In this document: one piece after another, positions 616-61,082 of the stretch
How the letters are laid out: each line of letters starts with the position of its first letter
Position numbering within the stretch: position 1 is the first letter of the stretch
DNA from: Candidatus Aenigmatarchaeota archaeon
Lineage (GTDB): Archaea > Aenigmatarchaeota > Aenigmatarchaeia > GW2011-AR5
DNA length: 64,000 bases
Assembly: GCA_041645025.1 (NCBI GenBank)
Contig: JBAZQV010000001.1
Coordinates: 1,519 to 65,518, forward strand
Reading direction: 5' to 3'
Program-made: the position numbers and the translations under genes
Notes under the pieces: model-generated
Seen by the model: only the letters and a program-made list of their open reading frames with translations
What the model was told of the DNA's origin: nothing
Database searches by the model: none

Positions 616-1407
616 ATGATAATAATGAACATAAAAATACTAGAGAAGTCGGACATGAAAATGAGGTTTCTGCTTGAAAAGGCGAACCCCGCATTTGCGA
701 ATGCGCTCAGACGCGTGGCAAAGAACGAGGTGCCTACAATGGCAGTAGAATATGTGGATTTCGAGGAGAACACTTCTGGCATGTTTGACGAGCTTTTGGC
801 GCACCGCATTGGACTTATACCGCTAACCTTTGACACAGCGGTTTACAACCTGAAGAACGAGTGCAAGTGCGGCGGAAAGGGCTGCAGCAAATGCGAAGTT
901 ACTCTTGTGCTTGAAAAGCAGGGCCCGTGCATTGTTAAGGCCGGAGACATGAAATCCACGGACGACAGCGTACTGCCTGCGGACAAGGATATACCAATTA
1001 TTGAGCTGCTTGAAAATCAGAGACTGAAATTTGAGGCAGTGGCGCAGCTGGGCCTTGGCATTGATCATATAAAATGGCAGGCATCTAATGTTGGTTACCA
1101 GTATGTTCCTATAGTAAAAGTTAACAGCGAGAAAGCGGACCCGAAGATAGCCGACATCTGCCCTGCCCATGTCTTTGACAAAAAGGACGGCAAGGTGAAA
1201 GTGGTTGCGGAGGACAAATGCGTACTCTGTATGCGGTGCGTCGAGACCAGTGAAGGGGTATCGGTTTCGGCAGACGATACGAGCTTTGTATTCAATATCG
1301 AATCAGTATCAGGCCTGACGGTAAAGGAAATCCTTAACAAGAGCCTAGACGTACTCGAGGAAAGATCCCAGGCACTGGCTGACAACATTAAAAAATCAGT
1401 GAAATAA
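616..1407 (+). CDS. rpoD: DNA-directed RNA polymerase subunit D (Rpo3) with 4Fe-4S-type cysteine clusters
   Basis: 263 aa; conserved position after S11; cysteine motifs CKCGGKGCSKC and CPAHV...CVLCMRC. Confidence 0.85.
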   Translation: MIIMNIKILEKSDMKMRFLLEKANPAFANALRRVAKNEVPTMAVEYVDFEENTSGMFDELLAHRIGLIPLTFDTAVYNLKNECKCGGKGCSKCEVTLVLEKQGPCIVKAGDMKSTDDSVLPADKDIPIIELLENQRLKFEAVAQLGLGIDHIKWQASNVGYQYVPIVKVNSEKADPKIADICPAHVFDKKDGKVKVVAEDKCVLCMRCVETSEGVSVSADDTSFVFNIESVSGLTVKEILNKSLDVLEERSQALADNIKKSVK

Positions 1408-1496
1408 GCCCTTTTTCGAAAAAAGCGCTTGCGGAAAAGAAATTACAGTTAAGAAAAAAATTAAGATTTAAACCTTGCAAGAAAATATTTGATCAG

Positions 1497-1676
1497 GCGA
1501 GGGTACCCAAGAAGCCCTTTTCTAAAGAAAAGCGCTTGCGGAAAAGAACAAGAGCCCTTTTACAGAAAAGGACTTGGGAATCTGGTCAAAGGGGCAGGAG
1601 ACGACTAATAATCGTCTGCTAAACTTAAGATCCTGTGGCAGTAGTGCCTACGGGAGTTCAAATCTCCTCCCTCGCA
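1497..1676 (+). tRNA. tRNA-Leu(UAA) with two introns. Exon1 1497-1511, intron1 ~1512-1580 (D-loop, 15/16), exon2 1581-1599, intron2 1600-1623 (31/32), exon3 1624-1676. Predicted mature length 87 nt; no encoded CCA.
   Basis: Acceptor GCGAGGG pairs with CCCTCGC; T-arm GGGAG-TTCAAAT-CTCCT; D-region TACCCAAG/TCTGGTCAAAGGGG matches archaeal tRNA-Leu; anticodon stem CAGGA/TCCTG with loop CTTAAGA; long variable arm TGGCAGTAGTGCCTAC; CCCAAG/CTTGGG helix at the intron1 boundary. Confidence 0.75.
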
Positions 1677-1735
1677 TAAGCCCCTTTCTTAAAAAGAAAG
1701 TGGCTTGCGGTCAAAGAAAATATTAAAAAAAGCAC
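1677..1735 (+). promoter_or_regulatory. Recurrent U-rich palindromic hairpin plus BRE/TATA-like module upstream of L18e
   Basis: CCCCTTTCTTAAAAAGAAAG hairpin followed by GTGGCTTGCGGTCAAAGAAAATATTAAAAAAAG; the same module follows the stops of rpoD and of the 572-aa and 783-aa genes. Confidence 0.45.
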
Positions 1736-6401: not shown

Positions 6402-6406
6402 CCAAC

Positions 6407-6600
6407 TTAATATTCAGGTACAACAAAGAACTTGTAGTTCTTTGTGTACAGAAAGAACTTTGTTCTTTCTTGTATTATAAAAGTTGGTCACATACAAGGT
6501 GAAACAAAGTTTCACCTGTACAGGTTAAGCGTTGCTTAACCATGTATAGCAAACCAAGGTATAATATCCAGATTCTTTACTTGGTTAGCTATAAACCAAT
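6407..6600 (+). ncRNA. Structured ~190-nt element, copy 1 of a two-copy family (candidate ncRNA or structured repeat)
   Basis: Closing helix CCAACTT/AAGTTGG encloses two hairpins, followed by a GTGAAAC hairpin, palindromic CCTGTACAGG and further hairpins; copy 2 at 46488-46670 keeps the architecture with compensatory stem changes. Confidence 0.4.
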
Positions 6601-6615
6601 GCTAGTAACTGGGCT

Positions 6616-7020
6616 CTAGGGCGCAAGTATTTGTGAAGGCGAATTCAGCGTCGTGAAGTTGTAGATTAAACCATCCTGCGAAGCAACAAGAAAATCAAGG
6701 CTAACGTTGTTTGTGACATCGCAATCATTTATGTTATATTTCATATAGAAAAAAATGCCCTTCGGAGCCAGTATATTCCATGCGGTTGCGTTCAGCTCCT
6801 TCAGATTTGTGCTGAGGTTCCTGCATGTTGGATTGTCATCGGTGACGGTATTCTTTATTATGTTATCCAGTTGTTTTGTGATGCTGTTAAAGTAAATATC
6901 ATTGCTTATTCTTGCCGGTGAAGAGGGGTCAACAACAAAGTAATCTTTTAGCAGAAGTGAGATGCCTAGAAATACGCTCGAAATTATTACAGCTGAAATG
7001 ATGAACCACTGGCCTTTCAT
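6616..7020 (-). CDS. Small secreted/membrane-anchored protein with a possible class III (type IV pilin-like) signal peptide
   Basis: N-terminus MKGQWFIISAVIISSVFLG: charged residue, Gly at -1, Gln at +1, hydrophobic stretch. Confidence 0.35.
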   Translation of the reverse strand: MKGQWFIISAVIISSVFLGISLLLKDYFVVDPSSPARISNDIYFNSITKQLDNIIKNTVTDDNPTCRNLSTNLKELNATAWNILAPKGIFFYMKYNINDCDVTNNVSLDFLVASQDGLIYNFTTLNSPSQILAP

Positions 7021-7317
7021 TTATTCACCAACTGAAATAACCTGGGCATGCATTGTCCCTCCTATTTTCATTACCGACGACGCTTCAACAATCTTCTTTT
7101 CAATCAACATATTTATTATATTATTGCCGACGGCATTTATTATGGTTGCGTTCTTCGCAAGCTTCAAGGCACCGGTACCATCACAGTTTTTACCTTTGTA
7201 GAATTCGGATATTGTTATTTCCAGGTCACCGCTGTTGAAGGTCTTGCCTAGAATATCCTCATCACAAATTGCAAGCAGCACTTCTCTGTCCTTTTTGAAC
7301 AGATTATAGTAAAACAT
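7021..7317 (-). CDS. Hypothetical protein (start trimmed to MFYYNL because the long ORF overlaps aIF2beta)
   Basis: ORF overlaps the 3' end of the aIF2beta gene; an internal Met gives a non-overlapping 99-aa product. Confidence 0.35.
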   Translation of the reverse strand: MFYYNLFKKDREVLLAICDEDILGKTFNSGDLEITISEFYKGKNCDGTGALKLAKNATIINAVGNNIINMLIEKKIVEASSVMKIGGTMHAQVISVGE

Positions 7318-7321
7318 AGTA

Positions 7322-7804
7322 TCACAGCTTTGCCGGGCGTTTTGCACCACATGCCTCACACTTGATAAATGTGTAGCTGTCAACTTTCTGCAAGGTGGTA
7401 TCGGGTTTTCCACACTCCTTGCATAACACAAGATCCTTGACGTACTCACGGATACGCTGATTGATAAGCGCCGTGGGAACCTTGGACTGCAGCACAAGCT
7501 CATTGTTTCGTACAGTTCCCGGAACTGCGAGTTCCTTGAACATGTATTTTGCTATTTCCAATGGCTCTCTCCGAAGGGCTTTTGCCATGTCGAGAAAATT
7601 CTTAATTATGGTCTGTTTCTTTCCTGTCTGAACTGATGCGACAGGTATCTCGAATCTGATTTCTGTTCTTGTAGGAAGATTTTGTCTGGCCTTTTTGAGA
7701 AGTTCTTCATAGTTCATTATAAATCCCTTTCTTTCCAATGCGGACGACGCCTTTGGCGTCATTCTGTTCAGGTCTTTATCATACCCCAACTCGAGGAAAG
7801 CCAA
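7322..7804 (-). CDS. eif2b: Translation initiation factor aIF-2 beta subunit (true start possibly at 7717, MNYEELL)
   Basis: C-terminal zinc ribbon CKECGKPDT...CEACGA and aIF2beta core. Confidence 0.8.
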   Translation of the reverse strand: MAFLELGYDKDLNRMTPKASSALERKGFIMNYEELLKKARQNLPTRTEIRFEIPVASVQTGKKQTIIKNFLDMAKALRREPLEIAKYMFKELAVPGTVRNNELVLQSKVPTALINQRIREYVKDLVLCKECGKPDTTLQKVDSYTFIKCEACGAKRPAKL

Positions 7805-10304: not shown

Positions 10305-10424
10305 TCCATGTTGTTATTTCTCAAGGCTTTTCTTTAATTGAATGACGCACTTCGTGCGTCTGTCGAATAAGAAAACCCTGGAAAAGAATTCGGCTTTAAC
10401 TATTTTTACTGACAAAAGACTGTC

Positions 10425-17908: not shown

Positions 17909-18376
17909 TTAGTATCGCTTTTTGACTATTGATTTTCTTTCAGCAGCGACTATTGGCTTGACTACCTCGACATTCTTCGGGAACTCCTTTCCGCGCAGAA
18001 GAAGGTTCTTTTCTGCTTTCTTGGCTGAAAAAGCCCTCATGAGATACTTTTCGGCCTTTTCTACATCAAATTCCTTGCAGGAAAATATGTCTATGGAAGC
18101 GAAGCGCTGGGCAGCAAATGTGTGAATAGTTATGTGGCTTTCTGCTATGAGCACAAAGGCTGATACGCCGCCTCGATCAAAGCTATCTTTTTTACCCAGC
18201 GGGTTTGATGTAAACTTATTGACGACGGGCTGGAAAATTTTGTGCATGCCTATTTTTTCAGGCAGTTTGTCCAATAAGTTGTATATAAATTTATCATCGA
18301 GAAGACGTTGTTTGTCACATCCGTACATGTCAAGTGTTAGATGTGGGCCAAAACCGACAGTTACTTTTTGTTCCAT
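17909..18376 (-). CDS. speH: S-adenosylmethionine decarboxylase proenzyme (archaeal SpeH type)
   Basis: FVLIAESHITIHTF and FASIDIFSC motifs. Confidence 0.7.
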   Translation of the reverse strand: MEQKVTVGFGPHLTLDMYGCDKQRLLDDKFIYNLLDKLPEKIGMHKIFQPVVNKFTSNPLGKKDSFDRGGVSAFVLIAESHITIHTFAAQRFASIDIFSCKEFDVEKAEKYLMRAFSAKKAEKNLLLRGKEFPKNVEVVKPIVAAERKSIVKKRY

Positions 18377-18479
18377 CTTATTATCTACATTTCCCCTTCT
18401 TTTTAGTAAGATTATTTTTTGTACGCGTCACATATTTAAAAATATAGCTTCTCTATCAAAGGGGTTTTTGAAGTTTGTT

Positions 18480-19424
18480 ATGCGCAAAAGTACTATGAAA
18501 ACCGATACCGCTGTAAAGGGCTACGATTTTTCCAAGGGCCTGGACCTGAAGAGTTTCCTTGAAGCCTATGCGACGACCGGGCTGCAGGCGTCCAACCTGA
18601 CAAAGGCTATAGAAATAGCCAAAAAGATGAGAAAGGAGAAGGTCACAGTATTTCTTGGCTACACCTCTAACATGATTTCCTCGGGCGTGCGTGAGTCCAT
18701 CCTATATCTTGTAAAAAACAAACTAGTGCATGCTATAGTAACCACGGCTGGCGGCGTAGAAGAGGATATAATAAAGTGCATCAAACCTTTCATATTGGGA
18801 GATTTTCGTCTTGACGGGGCAGCACTGCGCCGCCAGGGCATAAACAGGACAGGTAATATTCTGGTTCCCAATGACAGGTACATAGAATTTGAAAAGATAT
18901 TTACTCCATTTCTAAAGAAGCTTTTGGAAGAGCAGAAGCAAACAGGAAAGATAGCCACACCCACGGAGATTTGTAAGAGACTGGGAGAACTGGGTGATGA
19001 GACGTCTGTTCTTTACTGGGCACAGAAAAATAACATACCAGTTTTCTGCCCAGGCATAACCGATGGTTCCATGGGTGACATGATTTTCTTTTTCAAGAGC
19101 GAGAACCCGGAGTTCAAGGTTGATGTGTCTGATGATATCCACAATATAATAGACATGGTAATGGACTCAGGAAAGACGGGCGCGATAATCCTTGGCGGCT
19201 CCCTGCCAAAGCATCACATAATGAATGCTAACGGCGTTTTGGATGGTCTCAAGTATGCCATATACATAAACACTGCTACCGAAGGCGATGGATCGGACTC
19301 GGGTGCAATGCCTGAAGAAGCAAAGAGCTGGGGCAAGGCTGATTATGATGCTGATTGTGTAAAGGTTAGCATGGACGCTACGATAGCATTTCCGCTTCTT
19401 GTGGCGGGACTGGTGATTGAATGA
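18480..19424 (+). CDS. dys: Deoxyhypusine synthase, copy 1 (start trimmed to MRKSTMKT)
   Basis: 314 aa; GGSLPKHHIMNAN and NTATEGDGSDSGA motifs. Confidence 0.85.
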   Translation: MRKSTMKTDTAVKGYDFSKGLDLKSFLEAYATTGLQASNLTKAIEIAKKMRKEKVTVFLGYTSNMISSGVRESILYLVKNKLVHAIVTTAGGVEEDIIKCIKPFILGDFRLDGAALRRQGINRTGNILVPNDRYIEFEKIFTPFLKKLLEEQKQTGKIATPTEICKRLGELGDETSVLYWAQKNNIPVFCPGITDGSMGDMIFFFKSENPEFKVDVSDDIHNIIDMVMDSGKTGAIILGGSLPKHHIMNANGVLDGLKYAIYINTATEGDGSDSGAMPEEAKSWGKADYDADCVKVSMDATIAFPLLVAGLVIE

Positions 19425-20377
19425 GCAAGATGAATGAAGCTAAAGACAGCATATTCAAGGACTCCACAGAGCCGGAAGGCCTTGAAATAAAGGGCTACGA
19501 TTTTTCAAAACAACCAACCCTGAGTAAATTAATAGAAAGCTTTTACTCTACAGGATTCCAGGCTTCTCATCTGGGCAGGGCCATAGAAGTTGCAAAGAAG
19601 ATGAGAAAGGGGAATGTGACAATATTTCTTGGTTTTGGCGCAGATGCAGTTGCTTCCGGCGTCCGCGAGTCTATATCTTATCTTGTAAAAAATAAGATAG
19701 TTCATGCGCTAGTGACCACGGCCGATGGCATTGAAGCCGATGTCATAAGGACAAGGAAAGATTTTGTTCTGAATGGAAAGGGGAAACGCGGGGATAATTT
19801 TGTAGGAAATATTATGATTCCATGCGACGGGTATAAAATATTCACAGATATTCTAAACAAGACGCTTTCCGAGTTGTATGTGGAACAGAAAAAATCAGGA
19901 GAAATAGCTACACCGGGTAAAATTGCAAAAAGTCTGGGAAAGGTGTGCGATGAAACTTCTATACTGTATTGGGCACAGAAAAATAACATACCGGTTTTCT
20001 GTCCTGGCATAACTGACGGCGCCACGGGAAATATAATATCTTCATTCAAGTCAAAGAGCAGGGACTTCAAGCTGGACGTGAGTGATGATGTTGTTATTCT
20101 TGAGGACACGGTCCTGGACGCCAAAGAGACAGGCGCAATAATTCTCGGCGGTTCCCTGCCAAAGCACCATATAATGAATGCTAATATGATGCGCGAGGGC
20201 ACCAAGTACACGATTTACATTAACACAGCCATGGAAGGAGACGGCTCGGACAGTGGTGCGCTGCCAGAGGAAGCAAAGAGCTGGGGGAAAGCTGCCGCAG
20301 ATGTTGATTCGGTGAAGGTTCAGGCAGATGCCAGCATAGTTTTTCCTCTGCTGGTCGCTGGGGCTTTTGTTGACTAG
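19421..20377 (+). CDS. dys: Deoxyhypusine synthase, copy 2 (tandem paralog, overlapping stop/start)
   Basis: 318 aa; about 55-60% identical to copy 1 by eye; the same motifs are conserved. Confidence 0.85.
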   Translation: MSKMNEAKDSIFKDSTEPEGLEIKGYDFSKQPTLSKLIESFYSTGFQASHLGRAIEVAKKMRKGNVTIFLGFGADAVASGVRESISYLVKNKIVHALVTTADGIEADVIRTRKDFVLNGKGKRGDNFVGNIMIPCDGYKIFTDILNKTLSELYVEQKKSGEIATPGKIAKSLGKVCDETSILYWAQKNNIPVFCPGITDGATGNIISSFKSKSRDFKLDVSDDVVILEDTVLDAKETGAIILGGSLPKHHIMNANMMREGTKYTIYINTAMEGDGSDSGALPEEAKSWGKAAADVDSVKVQADASIVFPLLVAGAFVD

Positions 20378-23254: not shown

Positions 23255-23295
23255 ACAAGTGAGAATTATTGAAAAGTATTAAAAACATAATTAAC

Positions 23296-23350
23296 CCTTT
23301 TTCTTGGGAAGAAAAAGCCCTACTGGAAAAAGAACATATTATAAAAAGGA
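23296..23350 (+). promoter_or_regulatory. U-rich palindrome (CTTTTTCTTGGGAAGAAAAAG) plus BRE/TATA-like AAAAAGAACATATTATAAAAAG module
   Basis: Same module family as 1677-1735, 29327-29393 and 55401-55451. Confidence 0.4.
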
Positions 23351-23361
23351 TATCACTGCAC

Positions 23362-24875: not shown

Positions 24876-25180
24876 TCTCTACACCTGCCTAATAATTCCT
24901 CTTAATTATACTTGTCTCTTCTGTATAAAAAGAATACTATAAGATTTGTGAATTCTTTTATGCTCAAAATTGCAAAGCAATTTTGGCATGCCAGAAAGCT
25001 TTGCTTTCTTAGCATACCGGAATACATGATTGAGCAAAGCTCAATCTGTATAGGTTGAATAAAATTCAACCTTATACCACGAATAATACCACTGTTCAAA
25101 GACGGCGGTATTCCTTGTATAAATTGATTTTGTAGGCACCAAAAGCAAAGTTAAATATTGCACAAGGACAATAATGATTT

Positions 25181-25536: not shown

Positions 25537-25632
25537 CTATAGTAGAAGACATTAGTTTTCATACAAAATAATGTCTTCTGCATATAGCAGTGACATCATA
25601 ATATGTACGGTTATTTATGTCACATGCTATAA
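25537..25632 (+). repeat. 96-bp repeat A, left copy, two internal hairpins; inverted partner at 46717-46812
   Basis: 94/96 identity to the reverse complement of 46717-46812; stems AGAAGACATT/AATGTCTTCT and TATAGCAGTGACAT/ATGTCACATGCTATA. Confidence 0.8.
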
Positions 25633-25658
25633 GATGAACATTTTACAATAAATGTTCG

Positions 25659-27591: not shown

Positions 27592-29310
27592 ATGACGCTT
27601 CGGATAACAGGTGAAAATATGACTTATACTGTGGGTATTTCAACGGGCTTCTGGCGGGTAGCAAGAGACCCGGCGCTGCTCGGCTTGGCGCAGAAGATAG
27701 GTGGCTTGGGCGCTACGGGCGGGATACGGTTCGTGCAGCTTGATCTTGAATCTGTTGCCGAGTTCTATGAACCAGAAGTCAAAGTCCAGGTAAAGAGAAT
27801 GAAGGACAAACTAGGAATGTTGTTTGTCGGGCTTCATGGCGAGATAGGCGAGCTGATGGCCTTGGACTCTGCGGAAAAAAGGATATGGGACCAGACGCAC
27901 AGGAGACTGTGCCAGACAGCAAGATATGCCGCTGATCTCGGCTTCTTTTATGTAAACATTCACATGTCAAACAAACAGGTGATCTCCTTTACAGAGGCAC
28001 AACACCGCACACAAGGATATTTCTACCCTGTTGTCGGACCTGATGGAAAAGGGCTGCAAAGCATTATCATGGGCAATACAAAAATATATGACGAGGCAAA
28101 GAAGCATATACCCATGCATACCATAACTAGGAGCAATACGTTTAATGAAGAATATAAAAAATTACAGCAAGAAAAACTGAAACAACTTCCTGAAATTCTT
28201 GAGCACATTGCCGAACGAGAGCTAGAGCGATACCCTCCAGAACAAAGGACAGATGAATTAAAGAAGGCAATAAAAAAGCAACACGAAGATAAAGCTCGAC
28301 AAGACCTTCTAGACCAAGCATCTAATACTGCATACAGGGATGAAAGATTTCAATTTGATGTCTGGCTGAAACTGGGGAACAGCGAAGCAGAAAAATACCA
28401 GTTGGATGACGGCGAGTGGGGTGCATTTCATCTTGTGGCGCACTGGATGAAGGAAAAGGGCGATTCTTACTGGACCAACATTGCAGGCGGCAAGGATCCT
28501 CAATCACTTTATTTCGAGAATGAGAACGCGTTCTGCGCCGCTGTTGCTTCCAAGTATATAGAAGGCCATTTCACGCTGAAGGATAACCCGGCGAACAGGG
28601 AGTTCCTCGACGGCATGAGCATAAAGGAATGGTGCGAGGCAAAAAACCTGTACATGCTTACAGAGAACCCGGAATCAGGAGAAGGTGCAGAAGGCCTCTA
28701 CCGGCTTTTCCGGCCAGAACACTACTACTATACAATAAAACATATCAATTCGCCGAAAATAAAAATATGCCTGGATTTTGAACACATGGTTTCCCAGGGC
28801 CTTGACCCGGACGTTGAATTGAAAAAACTGCCTGATGACTTTGGCAAGATGGTTGTTCTCTTTCACCTAGGTCAGCCTGTTCCCTACGGCGGAACAGCAC
28901 ATATACCTGTATCACGCGGTTCGCTGGCCCAGGAGCAGATTTACCGGTGGCTTTATCTGATGAAGAAAAAAGGATGGAAAGACGGTTATGTACTATTTGA
29001 AAGAGGCGGCGGCAGGACAGGAAAAGGCGCGCTCCCTCAGGAAGTCTTTGAGGACACTGTCACGGCGCTAAGATGGATTGTGACTTTCCTGGAGCGCGAC
29101 GTGAAGCCGGAGGACCTGCCGCCCGAATTCTACGGCATTTCATTGCAGAATGAGCCGGTTTTTGCTAGGCAGCTTGTAGCAATGAGAGAGCATGCATGGG
29201 ATCCTCTTGAAGGATTGCTTAGCGTGCCTGAAGAAAAGCATACATTTCTGGGCAAGACAGCTGTTGACAAGGGCAAGGGCCAGGAATGGGAAAAGAGGAA
29301 ATTCAGATAA
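27592..29310 (+). CDS. Xylose-isomerase-like / endonuclease IV-like TIM-barrel protein with large insertions (572 aa)
   Basis: VGISTGFW...GGIRFVQL N-terminus; FYVNIHMS, ICLDFEHM and FHLGQ segments resemble AP endonuclease family 2 / sugar-phosphate isomerase metal-binding motifs. Confidence 0.4.
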   Translation: MTLRITGENMTYTVGISTGFWRVARDPALLGLAQKIGGLGATGGIRFVQLDLESVAEFYEPEVKVQVKRMKDKLGMLFVGLHGEIGELMALDSAEKRIWDQTHRRLCQTARYAADLGFFYVNIHMSNKQVISFTEAQHRTQGYFYPVVGPDGKGLQSIIMGNTKIYDEAKKHIPMHTITRSNTFNEEYKKLQQEKLKQLPEILEHIAERELERYPPEQRTDELKKAIKKQHEDKARQDLLDQASNTAYRDERFQFDVWLKLGNSEAEKYQLDDGEWGAFHLVAHWMKEKGDSYWTNIAGGKDPQSLYFENENAFCAAVASKYIEGHFTLKDNPANREFLDGMSIKEWCEAKNLYMLTENPESGEGAEGLYRLFRPEHYYYTIKHINSPKIKICLDFEHMVSQGLDPDVELKKLPDDFGKMVVLFHLGQPVPYGGTAHIPVSRGSLAQEQIYRWLYLMKKKGWKDGYVLFERGGGRTGKGALPQEVFEDTVTALRWIVTFLERDVKPEDLPPEFYGISLQNEPVFARQLVAMREHAWDPLEGLLSVPEEKHTFLGKTAVDKGKGQEWEKRKFR

Positions 29311-29326
29311 GTCTTTCTTCTTTAAG

Positions 29327-29393
29327 CTTTTCTTAGAAAGAAAACCTTGGAAAAGAACTATTATAGAAAAAGTGGCTTGCAGTCAAAAAGAAC
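29327..29393 (+). promoter_or_regulatory. U-rich palindrome plus BRE/TATA-like module (TTTTCTTAGAAAGAAAA ... AAAAGAACTATTATAGAAAAAGTGGCTTGCAGTCAAAAAGAAC)
   Basis: Immediately after the stop of the 572-aa gene; shares GTGGCTTGCRGTCAAA with the module at 1700. Confidence 0.4.
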
Positions 29394-29484
29394 TTATTAT
29401 ATTTTCGGCTCACTGACGTTCGCAGTGTGTAGAGTCTTAGCTAGCTTTTAGTTATTGTTTCAAACTACAGCAATAAAGCTTAAA

Positions 29485-39897: not shown

Positions 39898-39995
39898 TAT
39901 CGATCCCTTTTCTTACAAAGAAAATGTCTAGATATCACCCTAAAAGAAATGGTGTTCCTCAAGACCTTATCTTCAAACGTTATTTTCATTTTTAA

Positions 39996-46487: not shown

Positions 46488-46670
46488 GTTCTCCAAGGAA
46501 ATAAACAGGATACGAGGAAGAATTGAAAATTCTTCCTGTACAGAAAGAACGAAGTTCTTTCTTGTATTACTTCCTTGGGAACTATACATGGTGAAGCAAC
46601 GATTCACCTGTACAGGAGAACCAAAGGTTCTCCATGTGTGTGAACCCAGTCGCATGAAAATTCTTTTCTG
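46488..46670 (+). ncRNA. Structured element, copy 2 of the family seen at 6407-6600
   Basis: Closing helix CCAAGGAA/TTCCTTGG, hairpins GGAAGAATT/AATTCTTCC and AGAAAGAAC/GTTCTTTCT, conserved CCTGTACAGG, covarying hairpins GGAGAACC/GGTTCTCC and GTGAACCCAG/CTGGGTTCAC. Confidence 0.4.
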
Positions 46671-46716
46671 GGTTCACTATAACAAGTGATTTCTGGACGA
46701 TTCTGATGATGATATG

Positions 46717-46812
46717 TTATAGCATGTGACATAAATAACCGTACATATTATGATGTCACTGCTATATGCAGAAGACATTATTTTGTACAAAAACTAATGT
46801 CTTCTACTATAG
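46717..46812 (-). repeat. 96-bp repeat A, right copy (inverted relative to 25537-25632)
   Basis: Reverse complement is 94/96 identical to 25537-25632. Confidence 0.8.
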
Positions 46813-53041: not shown

Positions 53042-55393
53042 ATGGATATAGAGAAAAAATTAAAGGAAATGGAAGAGTCCATAAAGACCATAGCAGAGTT
53101 CGTGAGGGACCAGACGGAAAAGATAGAGGCAGAGCTTTCCATGCCTGATTATTCGGACGAGATGGAGAAGATAAAGGAAACTTTTTCTGACGAAAAGGAA
53201 TACGCGCGTCTTCAGGCGAAAAAAATCGACAAGCTTGAGGGGCATGTGGAGGTGCTTCTCAAGTCGCCCAAGGACAAGTCAATGGAGGAGAAATTCAAGA
53301 AATCCATGCAGTCCACCCGTGCTGAACTTGACAAGCTTAAGCATGAGCTGATGCCAAAGGTAAAATTCATCGAGGGAAAGATGGACAAGATCAAGGAAGC
53401 AGTGGAAGAGGTTGGTGAGCTACACGAGCTAAAGGGTCACATGAAGGAACTGGAAACGAAAATGCAGGCCAGTGTTGAAGGTGTTGAAAAACAACTCAAA
53501 GAAGTCACAAACACCAACTTCGGTGATAATTACAAAAAGGAACTGGAGAGATTGAATGAGGGAATGCTGGCGCGGTTCAAGGACAATAACGTGGAATACT
53601 TTGAGAAGCTGGGTTATATTGAACAACGCGTCAACTCGCTAACTGGAAAGGTCGACAAAACCTCCAATGATGATATCCTGCAGAAAGTCAAAAGCCTGGA
53701 CGAAAAGCTTGGCAACCTGAAGGAGTCGCTAGACGGTATTGCTGCCCTGAATCCAGAGGAGATGAAAGACCGCGTTGATTTCATAGACAACAAGCTCAAT
53801 GAGACACTTGTCAATAAGAACCAGCTGGATGACATGGAAAAAACCTTAAGGGAAACCAGGGCTGTTGCGAACAGGTTCAAGGATTTCAATGCCGAGGAAT
53901 ACAGGGAGGAACTGGTCAAGGAAATAAACGGTGCTATTGAAAATTTCAAACGCAGGGAATTCGGCAACATAAAAGACATCGGCGAGTCGCTTTCAAGGTT
54001 CAAGAACCTGGAATTAAGCGACGTAAGAAAGATAAACTCACTTGTCGAGGAGCTGAAGGGACTTGAGATAGATGATGTCAAAGCCATGAAAAACATCGAG
54101 ACACGCGACATAAGACGGCTGAGCACGGCGCTCGACGAAATGAAGGGCGTCGAGCTGGAGGACATCGGAAGGCTCTCACGGCAGCTCAAGGATGCGCGGG
54201 AGTCCATTCGCGCGGAAATTGGCAACAAGCAGGCAACAGAGGAGAGACTTGCTTCAATTGAATCAAAGATGGAGGAGCTAAAGCGGGCTGAGAAAAAATT
54301 CGACAAGCATATAGGCGACATACTTGACCAGTTCAAGGATATGGAGGCGCACAACGTAAAGGACATGGCAAAACAGCTCAAGGAAGCGAAGGAGCTGCTG
54401 GAAGACGAATCAGTGAGCAGGCAGTCGTTTGAAAAACGCGTATTTGATATTGAAAACAAGGTACAAAACTTTGAAAAGAGCACTGCAAAAACCCTCGAAC
54501 AGTTCAAGCACTTCGAAGGCGAGGAAGTGAAAAAACTCAAGCAGCTGGCTGAACATTTCGAGCACCTTGAGTCAGATGACATAAAGAAGCTCAAAGAAAA
54601 CATGGAACACTTCAGCGAGCTGGAATCAGATGACATAAAGAAGCTCAAGGAAATGGTAGCGAACTTCGAGCACCTGAAGACTGAGGACATAGGCAAGCTG
54701 AAGCAGATGGTGGAACACTTCGGCAGTCTCGAATCCGATGACATAAAGAAATTGAGGGGAGCTATGGAGCAGCTCAAGGGTCTTGAGGCGCATGATATCA
54801 GCAGCCTTACGGAGAAAATGAAAAATGCGACAGAAGCGCTGGAAGATGAATCTGTAAACAGACAATCGATGGAAAAACGCATCATGGACTTGGAATCAAA
54901 GACCGAGAAAATCGACAGCATGGAGATTCATGATATTGAAAATCTCGCCAATGAGATGAAATACGCCAAGGAAACTCTGGAAGAGGAGTCGGTGACACGG
55001 CAATCACTTGAAAAACGGCTTCATGCTATTGAAACAGACATGAGCCAGGTGCGCGGTGTAGAGGCCGGACAGGAGAACGCCGAAAAAGTTGACGTTACAA
55101 AGCTCAGCAACCGGATCCAGGATATGGAAAGCAACATGAAACTTATGACCGTCAGACTGCTTACACAGCAGCTGAACGAGTTCGCAAAGTCAATTGACAG
55201 AAGGCTGCCAAACATTGTCAGCCGCGAGGAGTACCTAAGGCAGATAGCTGACTTGAACCAGCGCATACGCACCGTGGAAGCACCGGACCTCGCACCACTG
55301 GGCGCACGCGTCGGAAGGCTGGAGAAGAAGCTGGAAGAAATAGCTGGAATGATGCGCGGTATGTACAACCGGATTCCTATTGTTGTCGAATAA
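53042..55393 (+). CDS. Large coiled-coil protein (783 aa) with tandem 18-aa repeats
   Basis: Repeats HFEHLESDDIKKLKENME / HFSELESDDIKKLKEMVA / NFEHLKTEDIGKLKQMVE ...; no TM segment or signal peptide. Confidence 0.55.
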   Translation: MDIEKKLKEMEESIKTIAEFVRDQTEKIEAELSMPDYSDEMEKIKETFSDEKEYARLQAKKIDKLEGHVEVLLKSPKDKSMEEKFKKSMQSTRAELDKLKHELMPKVKFIEGKMDKIKEAVEEVGELHELKGHMKELETKMQASVEGVEKQLKEVTNTNFGDNYKKELERLNEGMLARFKDNNVEYFEKLGYIEQRVNSLTGKVDKTSNDDILQKVKSLDEKLGNLKESLDGIAALNPEEMKDRVDFIDNKLNETLVNKNQLDDMEKTLRETRAVANRFKDFNAEEYREELVKEINGAIENFKRREFGNIKDIGESLSRFKNLELSDVRKINSLVEELKGLEIDDVKAMKNIETRDIRRLSTALDEMKGVELEDIGRLSRQLKDARESIRAEIGNKQATEERLASIESKMEELKRAEKKFDKHIGDILDQFKDMEAHNVKDMAKQLKEAKELLEDESVSRQSFEKRVFDIENKVQNFEKSTAKTLEQFKHFEGEEVKKLKQLAEHFEHLESDDIKKLKENMEHFSELESDDIKKLKEMVANFEHLKTEDIGKLKQMVEHFGSLESDDIKKLRGAMEQLKGLEAHDISSLTEKMKNATEALEDESVNRQSMEKRIMDLESKTEKIDSMEIHDIENLANEMKYAKETLEEESVTRQSLEKRLHAIETDMSQVRGVEAGQENAEKVDVTKLSNRIQDMESNMKLMTVRLLTQQLNEFAKSIDRRLPNIVSREEYLRQIADLNQRIRTVEAPDLAPLGARVGRLEKKLEEIAGMMRGMYNRIPIVVE

Positions 55394-55400
55394 GTAAGAC

Positions 55401-55451
55401 TTTTCTTTGGAAAAGAAAATCCTTAAGCCAAAAGAAACATATTATAAAAAG
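55401..55451 (+). promoter_or_regulatory. U-rich palindrome (CTTTTCTTTGGAAAAGAAAA) plus BRE/TATA-like AAAAGAAACATATTATAAAAAG module
   Basis: Follows the stop of the 783-aa gene and lies ~58 bp upstream of the epimerase ATG. Confidence 0.45.
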
Positions 55452-55508
55452 AGTCTCACTAGCGCTCGCGATAATTACGTTTTAATCTGTTTCTGAATCA
55501 TTAGTCCT

Positions 55509-60440: not shown

Positions 60441-60854
60441 ATGATAACTTCTCTGAATCCCGGCATTGCGCTTATTGTAGCAGTTCTCGCGCTGCTTGGT
60501 CTTGAGGCAGAGATTTCTTCTGGCAATGGTATTGGTGCGTTTTTTCTCGGTGCTATCGCGACTGTGCCACTAATAGTTTACATATGGGAGGTCATGAAGA
60601 AGAACTGGACTGTCTATAGAAAATTCTACTCCATGTCATTTCACAAACGCGACATGAAGGTGATAAAAAAGAGCTGGATTCTTACCTGGTGGATTGTTCC
60701 CTATTCTCTTGTTGTGTATTCTGTTCTCGACATCACAGTGCTTCTCAATCCTGTTCTCGGCACGCCCTATAGCATGCTCTATGGCGCGCTGTTCGTGATT
60801 TTCTTCTACACGGCGCTCCAGAAGCCCAAATATTATGAATCAGTAAAAAAATAG
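60441..60854 (+). CDS. Membrane protein (4 TM)
   Basis: 137 aa, hydrophobic. Confidence 0.4.
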   Translation: MITSLNPGIALIVAVLALLGLEAEISSGNGIGAFFLGAIATVPLIVYIWEVMKKNWTVYRKFYSMSFHKRDMKVIKKSWILTWWIVPYSLVVYSVLDITVLLNPVLGTPYSMLYGALFVIFFYTALQKPKYYESVKK

Positions 60855-60961
60855 AATGGGCCCGAGCAGACCTTTCTAAAACTCGAGAAAAGCAGAGCTT
60901 TTCTGAGTTGCCAGAAACCTTTGGTTTCTGAGCAAGAAAGCTCTAGTGGAAAGAAGTATTA

Positions 60962-61082
60962 TGGGCTCGAGGAGATTTGAACTCCTGTCTCAAGGTACAT
61001 CGCACCTTCTTTTAGTACAGCTTTTCTTTCTAAGAAAAGGTGTCCCGAACCTCGGATCCTGACCAAGCTAGACTACGAACCC
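60962..61082 (-). tRNA. tRNA-Pro(CGG) with a 47-nt intron at the canonical 37/38 position. Exon1 61082-61044, intron 61043-60997, exon2 60996-60962.
   Basis: Minus-strand GGGTTCG...CGAGCCC acceptor, D-arm GTCT/GGAT, anticodon stem CGAGG/CCTTG, loop TTCGGG|A, T-arm AGGAG-TTCAAAT-CTCCT; the intron contains the CCTTTTCTTAGAAAGAAAAG hairpin. Confidence 0.7.

Follow-up and report, generated by a model that had tools for sequence, protein, structure and literature searches.

A dispersed hairpin repeat, usually placed at the 3' ends of genes, has probably become or replaced the core of bulge-helix-bulge (BHB) introns repeatedly in archaea of the Aenigmatarchaeota (DPANN). The evidence comes from a 64,000-nt stretch of a Candidatus Aenigmatarchaeota archaeon (GenBank assembly GCA_041645025.1, contig JBAZQV010000001.1, positions 1,519 to 65,518 of the forward strand; hereafter the window), whose tRNA-Pro(CGG) and tRNA-Leu(UAA) genes are both interrupted by introns, and from loci and genomes of relatives and metagenome matches, which are numbered L001, L002 and so on. 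Near-identical intron cores at different tRNA sites, an intergenic site that is filled in some genomes and empty in others, and a fold compatible with BHB splicing carry the argument. An original prediction on the tRNA-Pro gene had described a 47-nt canonical intron with a U-rich palindrome, had placed the same hairpin family in a tRNA-Leu intron and past several gene stops, and had taken it for a small mobile or duplicating RNA module or for a shared processing or termination signal.

Results

The tRNA-Pro(CGG) gene (60962-61082, minus strand) was recovered by ARAGORN in intron mode and by the Rfam tRNA model when the region was searched alone (43.1 bits, across the intron). Exon 1 (61044-61082) and exon 2 (60962-60996) flank a 47-nt intron at the canonical position 37/38 (60997-61043, all on the minus strand). 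Read from 61082 to 60962, the gene begins GGGUUCG UA GUCU..., its anticodon is CGG, and without the intron it gives the complete cloverleaf of a 74-nt tRNA. The pre-tRNA is identical in an independent assembly, up to the end of that contig. The intron, ACACCTTTTCTTAGAAAGAAAAGCTGTACTAAAAGAAGGTGCGATGT, includes CCTTTTCTTAGAAAGAAAAG and holds the palindrome CTTTTCTT-AGA-AAGAAAAG (61021-61039, minus strand), with an 8-bp stem and a 3-nt loop, so that the first claim of the original prediction was confirmed; the palindrome is lengthened by ACA/UGT flanking a C.C mismatch. The intron is composed of a 41-nt module core (nt 1-41) and a 6-nt site-specific adaptor, CGAUGU (nt 42-47).

The unit shared between introns and intergenic copies proved to be larger than the palindrome for which it had been taken. 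In the module, an outer stem of 3-4 bp and a T-run/A-run inner stem of 7-9 bp are set apart by a C.C (or C.U) mismatch; the inner stem closes a loop of 3-4 nt (typically a triloop), and a spacer of 3-9 nt leads to an AAAAGAA tail. A strict pattern requiring hairpin, spacer and tail matched the window twice, each time in a tRNA intron, against 0.00 matches expected from 100 dinucleotide shuffles. A covariance model (R1), built together with pair counts from one length class of module copies, returned eight window matches at E<=0.1, with E down to 1e-10, and a further 30 matches in relatives. All eight window matches lie in the non-coding part of the window, which makes up about 16% of it (p ~5e-7), and two of the eight fall within the tRNA introns, 140 nt in all (p ~0.005). 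The caveat attached to the original prediction, that the motif might simply be a common low-complexity palindrome with no enrichment in introns or 3' ends, is not borne out by this distribution (eight of eight window matches non-coding, two of eight in a tRNA intron).

The outer stem covaries. Among the metagenome matches listed, the three bases 5' of the pattern and the first three spacer bases were paired in 107/117, compared with a mean of 54.8 and a maximum of 66 when the pairing was permuted, and 19 distinct fully paired combinations occurred. The covariation score was 0.212 vs 0.069 in shuffles, none of the 500 shuffles scored as high, and the signal collapsed when the partner columns were slid.

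The core of the window tRNA-Pro 37/38 intron and that of a tRNA-Leu D-loop intron in L002 are identical at 39/41 positions, each within an intron of 47 nt, and BLAST independently pairs the two (95% over 42 nt, E 1e-12). The adaptors, that is the last six nt, differ (CGAUGU in the window tRNA-Pro, UGGGAA in the L002 tRNA-Leu), and in each intron four adaptor bases complement the four exon bases that directly precede the 5' bulge (UUCG in the former, CCCA in the latter); therefore, the core can be carried from site to site, whereas the adaptor belongs to its site. At 95% (39/41), the pair lies above the 70% similarity in distinct tRNA genes by which introns are called transposed. Moreover, one site may hold different cores in close relatives. 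The D-loop site carries a GCGG-type core (AAGCCC...GCGCTTGCGG type) in the window and L003, and the tRNA-Pro-type core in L002, whose 37/38 intron has a related GCGG-type core. In L136, the one usable orthologous tRNA-Pro(CGG) locus (L140 has Ns at the site, and synteny is lost in L141-L147), a third, AATC-type core (TAAACTTCTTTAAAAAAGAAGTTTAATCAAGAAAC...) is found at 37/38 together with an extra D-loop intron, and the neighbouring regulator is 96% identical to that of the window. L009 has a genome-specific version common to its tRNA-Pro intron and its tRNA-Leu T-loop intron. These near-identical cores at different sites suggest that a dispersed repeat supplies and swaps archaeal tRNA intron cores. 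The mobility contained in the original prediction is thus upheld by the 39/41 core at two sites, by differing or absent cores and by the many contexts of the module; its placement at the RNA level is not, the evidence being at the level of DNA.

In the tRNA-Pro intron, hand analysis and constrained folding predict a helix h' between CACCUUUU (intron nt 2-9; 61035-61042, minus strand), which overlaps the T-rich arm of the palindrome, and AGAAGGUG (intron nt 34-41; 61003-61010, minus strand), which overlaps the AAAAGAA tail. The bases CGAU (60999-61002, minus strand) would form the 3' strand of the central 4-bp BHB helix, pairing with the anticodon-loop UUCG (61046-61049) through three Watson-Crick pairs and one U.U. 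The predicted hBHBh' order is anticodon stem, bulge GU|A, helix UUCG/CGAU, bulge GG|A and 8-bp h', with two 3-nt bulges, a 4-bp helix between them and both splice sites after the second bulge base. When energies were computed for the anticodon arm plus intron, this fold reached -18.1 kcal/mol vs -13.6 for the best fold keeping the palindrome, and the minimum free energy fold (-19.2 kcal/mol) already holds the CACCUUUU/AGAAGGUG helix; the palindrome is probably not the form taken in the pre-tRNA, where the pairing of T-arm and tail as h' is preferred. The L002 copy folds likewise, beside a CCCA/UGGG helix. The unconstrained fold of the full-length pre-tRNA favours the palindrome but forms no cloverleaf, and it was therefore set aside in favour of local and constrained ones. 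The most likely arrangement in introns is an h' formed by T-arm and tail, whose loop is made up of the palindrome partner and the spacer. Folds predicted for the intergenic copies show no extended complementarity to the tail, and the palindrome with the outer stem is the stable form.

The window has no EndA gene. Classical alpha4 EndA subunits have about 180 aa. The single EndA of one relative (L142 3877-4524; PF02778 + PF01974) has 215 aa and may belong to the loop-bearing EndAs that have been connected with disrupted tRNA genes in DPANN archaea (PMC5829648).

The tRNA-Leu(UAA) gene (1497-1676, plus strand), located between rpoD and L18e, has two introns, which were delimited by hand against intron-poor orthologs. 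Intron 1 (69 nt, D-loop 15/16) spans 1512-1580 and intron 2 (24 nt, near 31/32), in which the module is absent, spans 1600-1623, both on the plus strand; the exon sequence matches that of L001, which has no D-loop intron. In agreement with the original prediction, intron 1 contains the hairpin family (CCCTTTTCTAAAGAAAAG at 1515-1532). Its module copy (1511-1549, plus strand; R1 26 bits, E 0.0013) shares the exact 22-mer AAAAGCGCTTGCGGAAAAGAA with the copy at 1405-1442, 107 nt upstream, the stems of the two differing by compensating changes. Sequence and folding indicate a second T-run/A-run hairpin, GCCCTTTTACAGAAAAGG (1552-1578, plus strand), whose A-arm and flank would pair with the first T-arm and close intron 1 beside a CCCA/UGGG central helix. 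Among relatives, the RpoD proteins of which belong to Aenigmatarchaeota (DPANN) metagenome-assembled genomes (GTDB genomes, 48-89% identity), the intron positions of tRNA-Leu(UAA) vary: 37/38 only in L001, 37/38 in L008, D-loop and 37/38 in L002, D-loop and ~31/32 in the window and L003, ~31/32 in L004, and further along the D-loop in L006 and L007. A T-loop intron is included in L009, L013 has one intron of 11 nt, and L005 has none. Most of the introns in these syntenic tRNA-Leu(UAA) genes include a version of the module.

Outside introns, the window copies include three past gene stops (beginning at 1405, 29322 and 55394), a placement that the original prediction had noted for the hairpin family. 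One copy begins with the rpoD stop codon (TAAGCCCTTTTTCGAAAAAAGCGCTTGCGGAAAAGAAA, 1405-1442, plus strand; R1 E 0.023), and another adjoins the 3' end of tRNA-Leu (1678-1719, plus strand; R1); a copy adjoins tRNA-Leu in five relatives, at the same place in L002, L004, L006 and L007. A third copy, 12 nt past the stop of the open reading frame (ORF) 27592-29310 (29322-29358, plus strand; R1 33.6 bits, E 2.7e-5), has a hairpin 18/19 identical to that of the tRNA-Pro intron and is followed by a half unit lacking the hairpin (29370-29392). Directly past the stop of ORF 53042-55393, a copy (55394-55437, plus strand; R1) lies in a ~70-nt cassette (55390-55460), and the copy between two minus-strand genes (23294-23335, plus strand; R1) is part of a ~70-nt repeat (23287-23357) that runs on into ATATTATAAAAAG. 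A partial copy consisting of the hairpin, TTTTCTT-ACA-AAGAAAA (39908-39924; R1), stands 10 nt upstream of a glmS-like start codon, an arrangement that recurs in an L001 cassette. Furthermore, a by-eye reading and a weak R1 match point to a possible interrupted copy (10325-10385, plus strand), in which the T-arm is followed by an unrelated inserted hairpin, GACGCACTTCGTGCGTC, and then by AAGAAAACCCTGGAAAAGAAT.

Genes 6616-7020 and 7021-7503 abut in the window, and about 158 nt lie between their orthologs in L001. Read on the sense strand, this insert comprises a post-stop module and a TATA-like box, 91% identical to window 55385-55451, and then a 5' hairpin resembling window 39898-39995. Copies of the ~70-nt cassette were found at window 23287-23357 and 55390-55460, L001 13104-13170 and L003 835-907, those of cassette 55390-55460 in L001 and L003 being at non-orthologous sites. 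Past the rpoD stop, the window and L001 carry a copy, whereas L002 and L003 have an empty site. The copies are dispersed and differ in presence and absence between relatives, as expected of miniature inverted-repeat transposable elements (MITEs), and the filled and empty site, by sequence comparison, shows that intergenic copies move as DNA.

In 12/16 Aenigmatarchaeota copies outside introns and tRNA flanks, the T-arm begins 0-16 nt past the stop of a sense-strand ORF, and in nine it does so within 6 nt; the stop TAA often belongs to the outer stem. The most probable role of the intergenic copies is that of a hairpin for termination or stability at the 3' end, in some cases with a promoter attached, and their position makes a terminator role plausible. 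The reading as a 3'-end or termination signal, already offered in the original prediction, fits the post-stop and post-tRNA placement of the non-intron copies.

A BRE/TATA-like ATATTATAAA box (BRE, transcription factor B recognition element) often follows the module in Aenigmatarchaeota copies. In the window, (C)ATATTATAAAAAG-like boxes directly follow intergenic copies at 23336-23348, 29359-29372, 29396-29410, 55438-55452 and 1720-1732; they resemble the TATA boxes of this genome, and the AAAAGAAA tail then falls in the BRE position. In some relatives, the box is too near a Shine-Dalgarno-like AGGTGA and ATG to be the promoter of that gene. Two further candidates were rejected: a bacterial-type terminator, as no U-tract follows the hairpin on either strand, and, for the 47-nt tRNA-Pro intron, a C/D-box sRNA or another known RNA family, as the intron has neither C (RUGAUGA) nor D (CUGA) boxes, no guide-like complementarity and no Rfam snoRNA or sRNA match.

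A metagenome scan with the strict pattern gave at least 120 loci, and all counts in this and the next paragraph are among the matches listed. Excision of the module yields a tRNA gene in 10 loci (Pro-GGG, Gly-CCC, Gly-GCC, Arg-TCG, Arg-TCT, Leu-CAA, Leu-CAG, Ser-GCT twice, and Val-TAC), which brings module-bearing introns to at least eight further tRNA species; the junctions lie near positions 15, 18, 28 and 37-43, and one lineage with tRNA-intron copies is DPANN. Strand-parsed ARAGORN output gave 10 sense and 0 antisense modules in these introns. About seven copies adjoin tRNA 3' ends, and at four loci the module lies within archaeal large-subunit (LSU) rRNA, at two insertion sites; in L062 it is a 52-nt insertion in a conserved LSU rRNA hairpin loop near model position 1905. 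Most other matches are intergenic, with a mild bias in orientation relative to the upstream gene (~24 sense : 14 antisense).

The commonest type, with spacer TTTACC (60/119), occurs on the L046 contig, which encodes a PorA with 94% identity to ANME-1/Methanophagales proteins. The core of this type is 32/34 identical to the tRNA-Pro intron core, and 10/12 of the positions left free by the pattern are identical, a likeness that may reflect horizontal transfer or convergence. In nine complete and eight partial cases, this type lies within an element of 127-150 bp bounded by terminal inverted repeats (TIRs; AACCACRAGATT...AATCTYGTGGTT), which combines the module with a second T-run/A-run hairpin. 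The TIR elements have A-rich flanks and no target-site duplication, our literature search found no description of this MITE-like repeat, and a scan of viral contigs for the Pro-type core gave 0 matches. Loci with the TIR element are L018, L025, L027, L064, L066, L069, L078, L087 and L134.

Two side observations concern the surroundings of metagenome copies. In L116 (~1372-1640), L049, L051 and L126, duplicates of tRNA 3'-end segments (e.g., GTTCGAATCCTCCTCCCTGCA twice, ~50 nt apart) flank module copies and resemble the att-site duplications of integrating elements, but on a ~100-nt scale. In L029 (~1602-1633), a module stands at a frame-changing junction in a truncated NAD-dependent epimerase-like gene from which ~100 codons are seemingly missing; a deletion, a recombination event, a pseudogene or a chimeric assembly could account for this.

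Default ARAGORN and a whole-window Rfam scan at the gathering threshold found zero tRNAs in 1-64000. The two-intron tRNA-Leu was missed even by intron-mode ARAGORN and a sensitive Rfam scan.

Discussion

The favoured explanation is that the usual home of the module would be the 3' end of a gene, in sense orientation, at or within a few bases of a stop or of a tRNA 3' end, and that copies would be gained, lost and exchanged as DNA. A copy landing in an RNA gene where about six flanking intron bases pair with the upstream exon would produce a complete (h)BHBh' substrate, that is, a 4-bp helix and two 3-nt bulges closed by the T-arm and A-tail of the module as h'. The splicing endonuclease would then remove the insert and the gene would stay functional. 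Later, recombination or gene conversion could exchange cores from one intron site to another, or between introns and intergenic copies, with the adaptor staying in place; transfer would run from dispersed repeat to intron. A bolder form of this explanation, which we regard as possible and yet doubtful, holds that DPANN tRNA and rRNA BHB introns were born by DNA insertion of a mobile hairpin resembling repetitive extragenic palindromic (REP) sequences or MITEs, with the T-arm and A-tail giving h' and the endonuclease acting as a repair of the insertion, and that the element also moves horizontally between distant archaea (32/34 identity between ANME-1 and Aenigmatarchaeota).

Several points weigh against the derivation of intron cores from a dispersed repeat. 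Its basis is 64 kb of this genome and fragments of relatives, and within the window the Pro and Leu introns share the hairpin-plus-tail architecture only (~75% over 36 gapped columns). The filled and empty pair of L001 and the window shows no target-site duplication (CAT|...|TTA), no TIRs were seen around the Aenigmatarchaeota copies, and a Pfam scan of about 60 window ORFs found no transposase, integrase or reverse transcriptase. Runs of at least five T occur in 7/21 non-intron and 1/9 intron copies, a difference that is not significant (p = 0.37), so that support for a terminator role comes from position. Intron excision and the intergenic 3' ends are themselves predictions. Furthermore, post-stop sense placement, sense-only introns and a conserved mismatch and tail would also be expected of an RNA signal that is under selection and recognised by a protein; these data do not fully separate functional conservation from spread by copying, and the mobile-repeat and selected-signal readings may both be partly true.

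In its full form, the latter reading takes the module mainly as a functional RNA signal (a processing, termination or chaperone protein site) held by selection, with likeness between copies due to function and local duplication. The covarying outer stem with its conserved mismatch, inner stem and tail would agree with this, as would the strict sense orientation of all intron and rRNA copies, the T-arm at 0-6 nt from the stop in 9/16 intergenic copies, and the nearly identical sequences (32/34) of the ANME-1 repeat and the tRNA-Pro intron, which come from very distant archaea. However, selection for function does not account for presence and absence at orthologous sites or for different cores at one site in close relatives. 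About 14/38 intergenic copies are antisense to the upstream gene among the metagenome matches listed, and the module is packaged in a TIR-bounded repeat of ~130 bp. Moreover, the 39/41 identity takes in the spacer, which is free to vary between subfamilies and thus unlikely to be held by function, and tRNA-Leu intron 2 and many other introns do without the module, which is therefore not required for splicing. We consider it unlikely that a functional signal is the main explanation.

The introns could instead have come first, with excised circular BHB introns reverse-splicing and being copied to DNA, so that the intergenic copies would be intron-derived. Archaeal introns are indeed circularised (PMC12558985), and intron copies are all in sense, including the 10:0 metagenome tRNA copies among the matches listed, the four rRNA loci and every Aenigmatarchaeota case. 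This spread through RNA nevertheless appears improbable, given a window without reverse transcriptase, intergenic copies that lie in either orientation, with a TATA-like box or TIRs foreign to an excised intron, and a site-specific 6-nt adaptor that is not copied along with the core. A coincidence of composition, in which the easy T-run/A-run palindromes of an AT-rich genome were acquired independently, can draw on a G+C content of 42% and on the frequency of unrelated hairpins in non-coding DNA (35/54 stems of at least 7 bp lie in the non-coding ~16% of the window). It is hardly credible against two strict matches where 0.00 were expected, R1 E-values down to 1e-10 and the lack of any copy in coding DNA, and against shared parts that are not palindromic (the 22-mer of the 1405 and 1511 copies and the 39/41 identity across genomes).

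The derivation of cores from a dispersed repeat has precedents in part. In the Thermoproteales, as summarised in two reviews, similar introns in distinct tRNA genes were described as intron transposition; this was taken to mean that introns were gained late and as DNA, at sites where a BHB could form (PMC4090602, PMC4033280). DPANN archaea have many disrupted tRNA genes (PMC5829648). The core pattern of the window and its relatives is the same as that called transposition there; the differences are a DPANN (Aenigmatarchaeota) host, a defined structured module, a shared core with a site-specific 6-nt adaptor, and the occurrence of the module also after stops, after tRNAs, in LSU rRNA insertions and in a TIR-bounded repeat. 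Where these same reviews summarise the 2010 work of Fujishima et al. (Mol Biol Evol 27:2233), the relevant passages make no mention of intergenic relatives of the Thermoproteales introns (PMC4090602, PMC4033280). Intron transposition among tRNAs is known; in the present data, the resolution suffices to see the core as the moving part.

REPs, REPINs (REP doublets forming hairpins) and MITEs (PMC3116915, PMC3184786, PMC12306157) are likewise short, imperfect, high-copy palindromes placed mostly just downstream of genes, non-autonomous, with a lineage-specific consensus and presence/absence differences between relatives, and one lineage of the module is packaged by TIRs. Unlike the GC-rich stems of REPs, the module stem is AT-rich; it also has a polar 3' tail, and no RAYT/Y1 or other partner was found, with no Y1 (RAYT/TnpA) transposase among the window ORFs scanned against Pfam nor in the L014 gene table. 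To our knowledge, REPs and MITEs have not been described as BHB intron cores. In our literature search, no text paired 'bulge-helix-bulge' with 'miniature inverted-repeat', and no structured repeat was described as common to BHB-intron cores, gene 3' ends, rRNA insertions and MITE-like elements.

Canonical hBHBh' introns resemble the tRNA-Pro intron in the 37/38 position, anticodon stem, 3-nt bulges, 4-bp helix, 8-bp inner helix and cleavage positions. In contrast to them, its central helix has one U.U, and a perfect 8-bp palindrome is a competitor of its inner helix; the intron in the D-loop of tRNA-Leu lacks the outer helix (relaxed motif) and would need a broad-specificity endonuclease. The C/D box sRNA intron of tRNA-Trp is also a conserved structured element in a tRNA intron, whereas the module has no C/D boxes or guide-like complementarity and is not tied to one tRNA. 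Archaeal oligo-T terminators similarly show T4-T5 runs a few bases from stops and tRNA ends, and the palindrome gives a T-run on both strands; unlike them, the module is conserved far beyond the T-run, in hairpin, mismatch, spacer and tail, and also lies inside genes that have to be transcribed through.

Other features of the window

A hairpin pair (60886-60930) separates ORF 60441-60854 from the 3' end of tRNA-Pro, and intergenic arrays of unrelated 7-9 bp hairpins were found at 24965-25072 (mostly 3-nt loops) and 77-184 (4-6 nt loops). A pair of 99-nt inverted repeats (25537-25635 and 46714-46812), 97% complementary and 21,078 nt apart, encloses 21 kb in which housekeeping genes predominate (DNA ligase, TFB, GlmS-like and others); the enclosed segment may be invertible, or the repeats may be the two ends of a large element. 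A ~190-nt element with 4-5 triloop hairpins separated by TGTACAG is present at window 6405-6600 and 46497-46692, the latter copy adjoining the inverted-repeat arm at 46714, and in L004 (860-1040); its stems show compensatory changes (e.g., GGTTAAGC/GCTTAACC vs GGAGAACC/GGTTCTCC) and it has no Rfam match, which makes it a candidate for a new family of structured RNAs or repeats. Two adjacent deoxyhypusine synthase paralogs (Pfam DS; 18132-19424 and 19421-20377) share 70-81% nucleotide identity over several blocks, and the former has an N-terminal extension of ~140 aa. Five tandem 54-nt (18-aa) coding repeats (54551-54820) lie within the 783-aa, DUF3106-like ORF 53042-55393.

Conclusion

In brief, automated annotation of genomes such as this one will under-call tRNAs, and the module could serve to search DPANN genomes for tRNA and rRNA genes that are disrupted. 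The data bear on how archaeal tRNA genes gain short introns, especially at non-canonical positions, a question for which the 'intron transposition' of the Thermoproteales had been deduced from sequence similarity, with neither source nor mechanism known. With a core that is part of a structured, dispersed repeat, a concrete source of intron cores in the DNA comes into view, as does a rule for their survival, in which the core would bring h' and about six site-specific bases would complete the BHB. Intron gain becomes a testable question. If introns were indeed born by insertion, this would supply a long-missing mechanism for archaeal intron gain and for 'intron transposition'.

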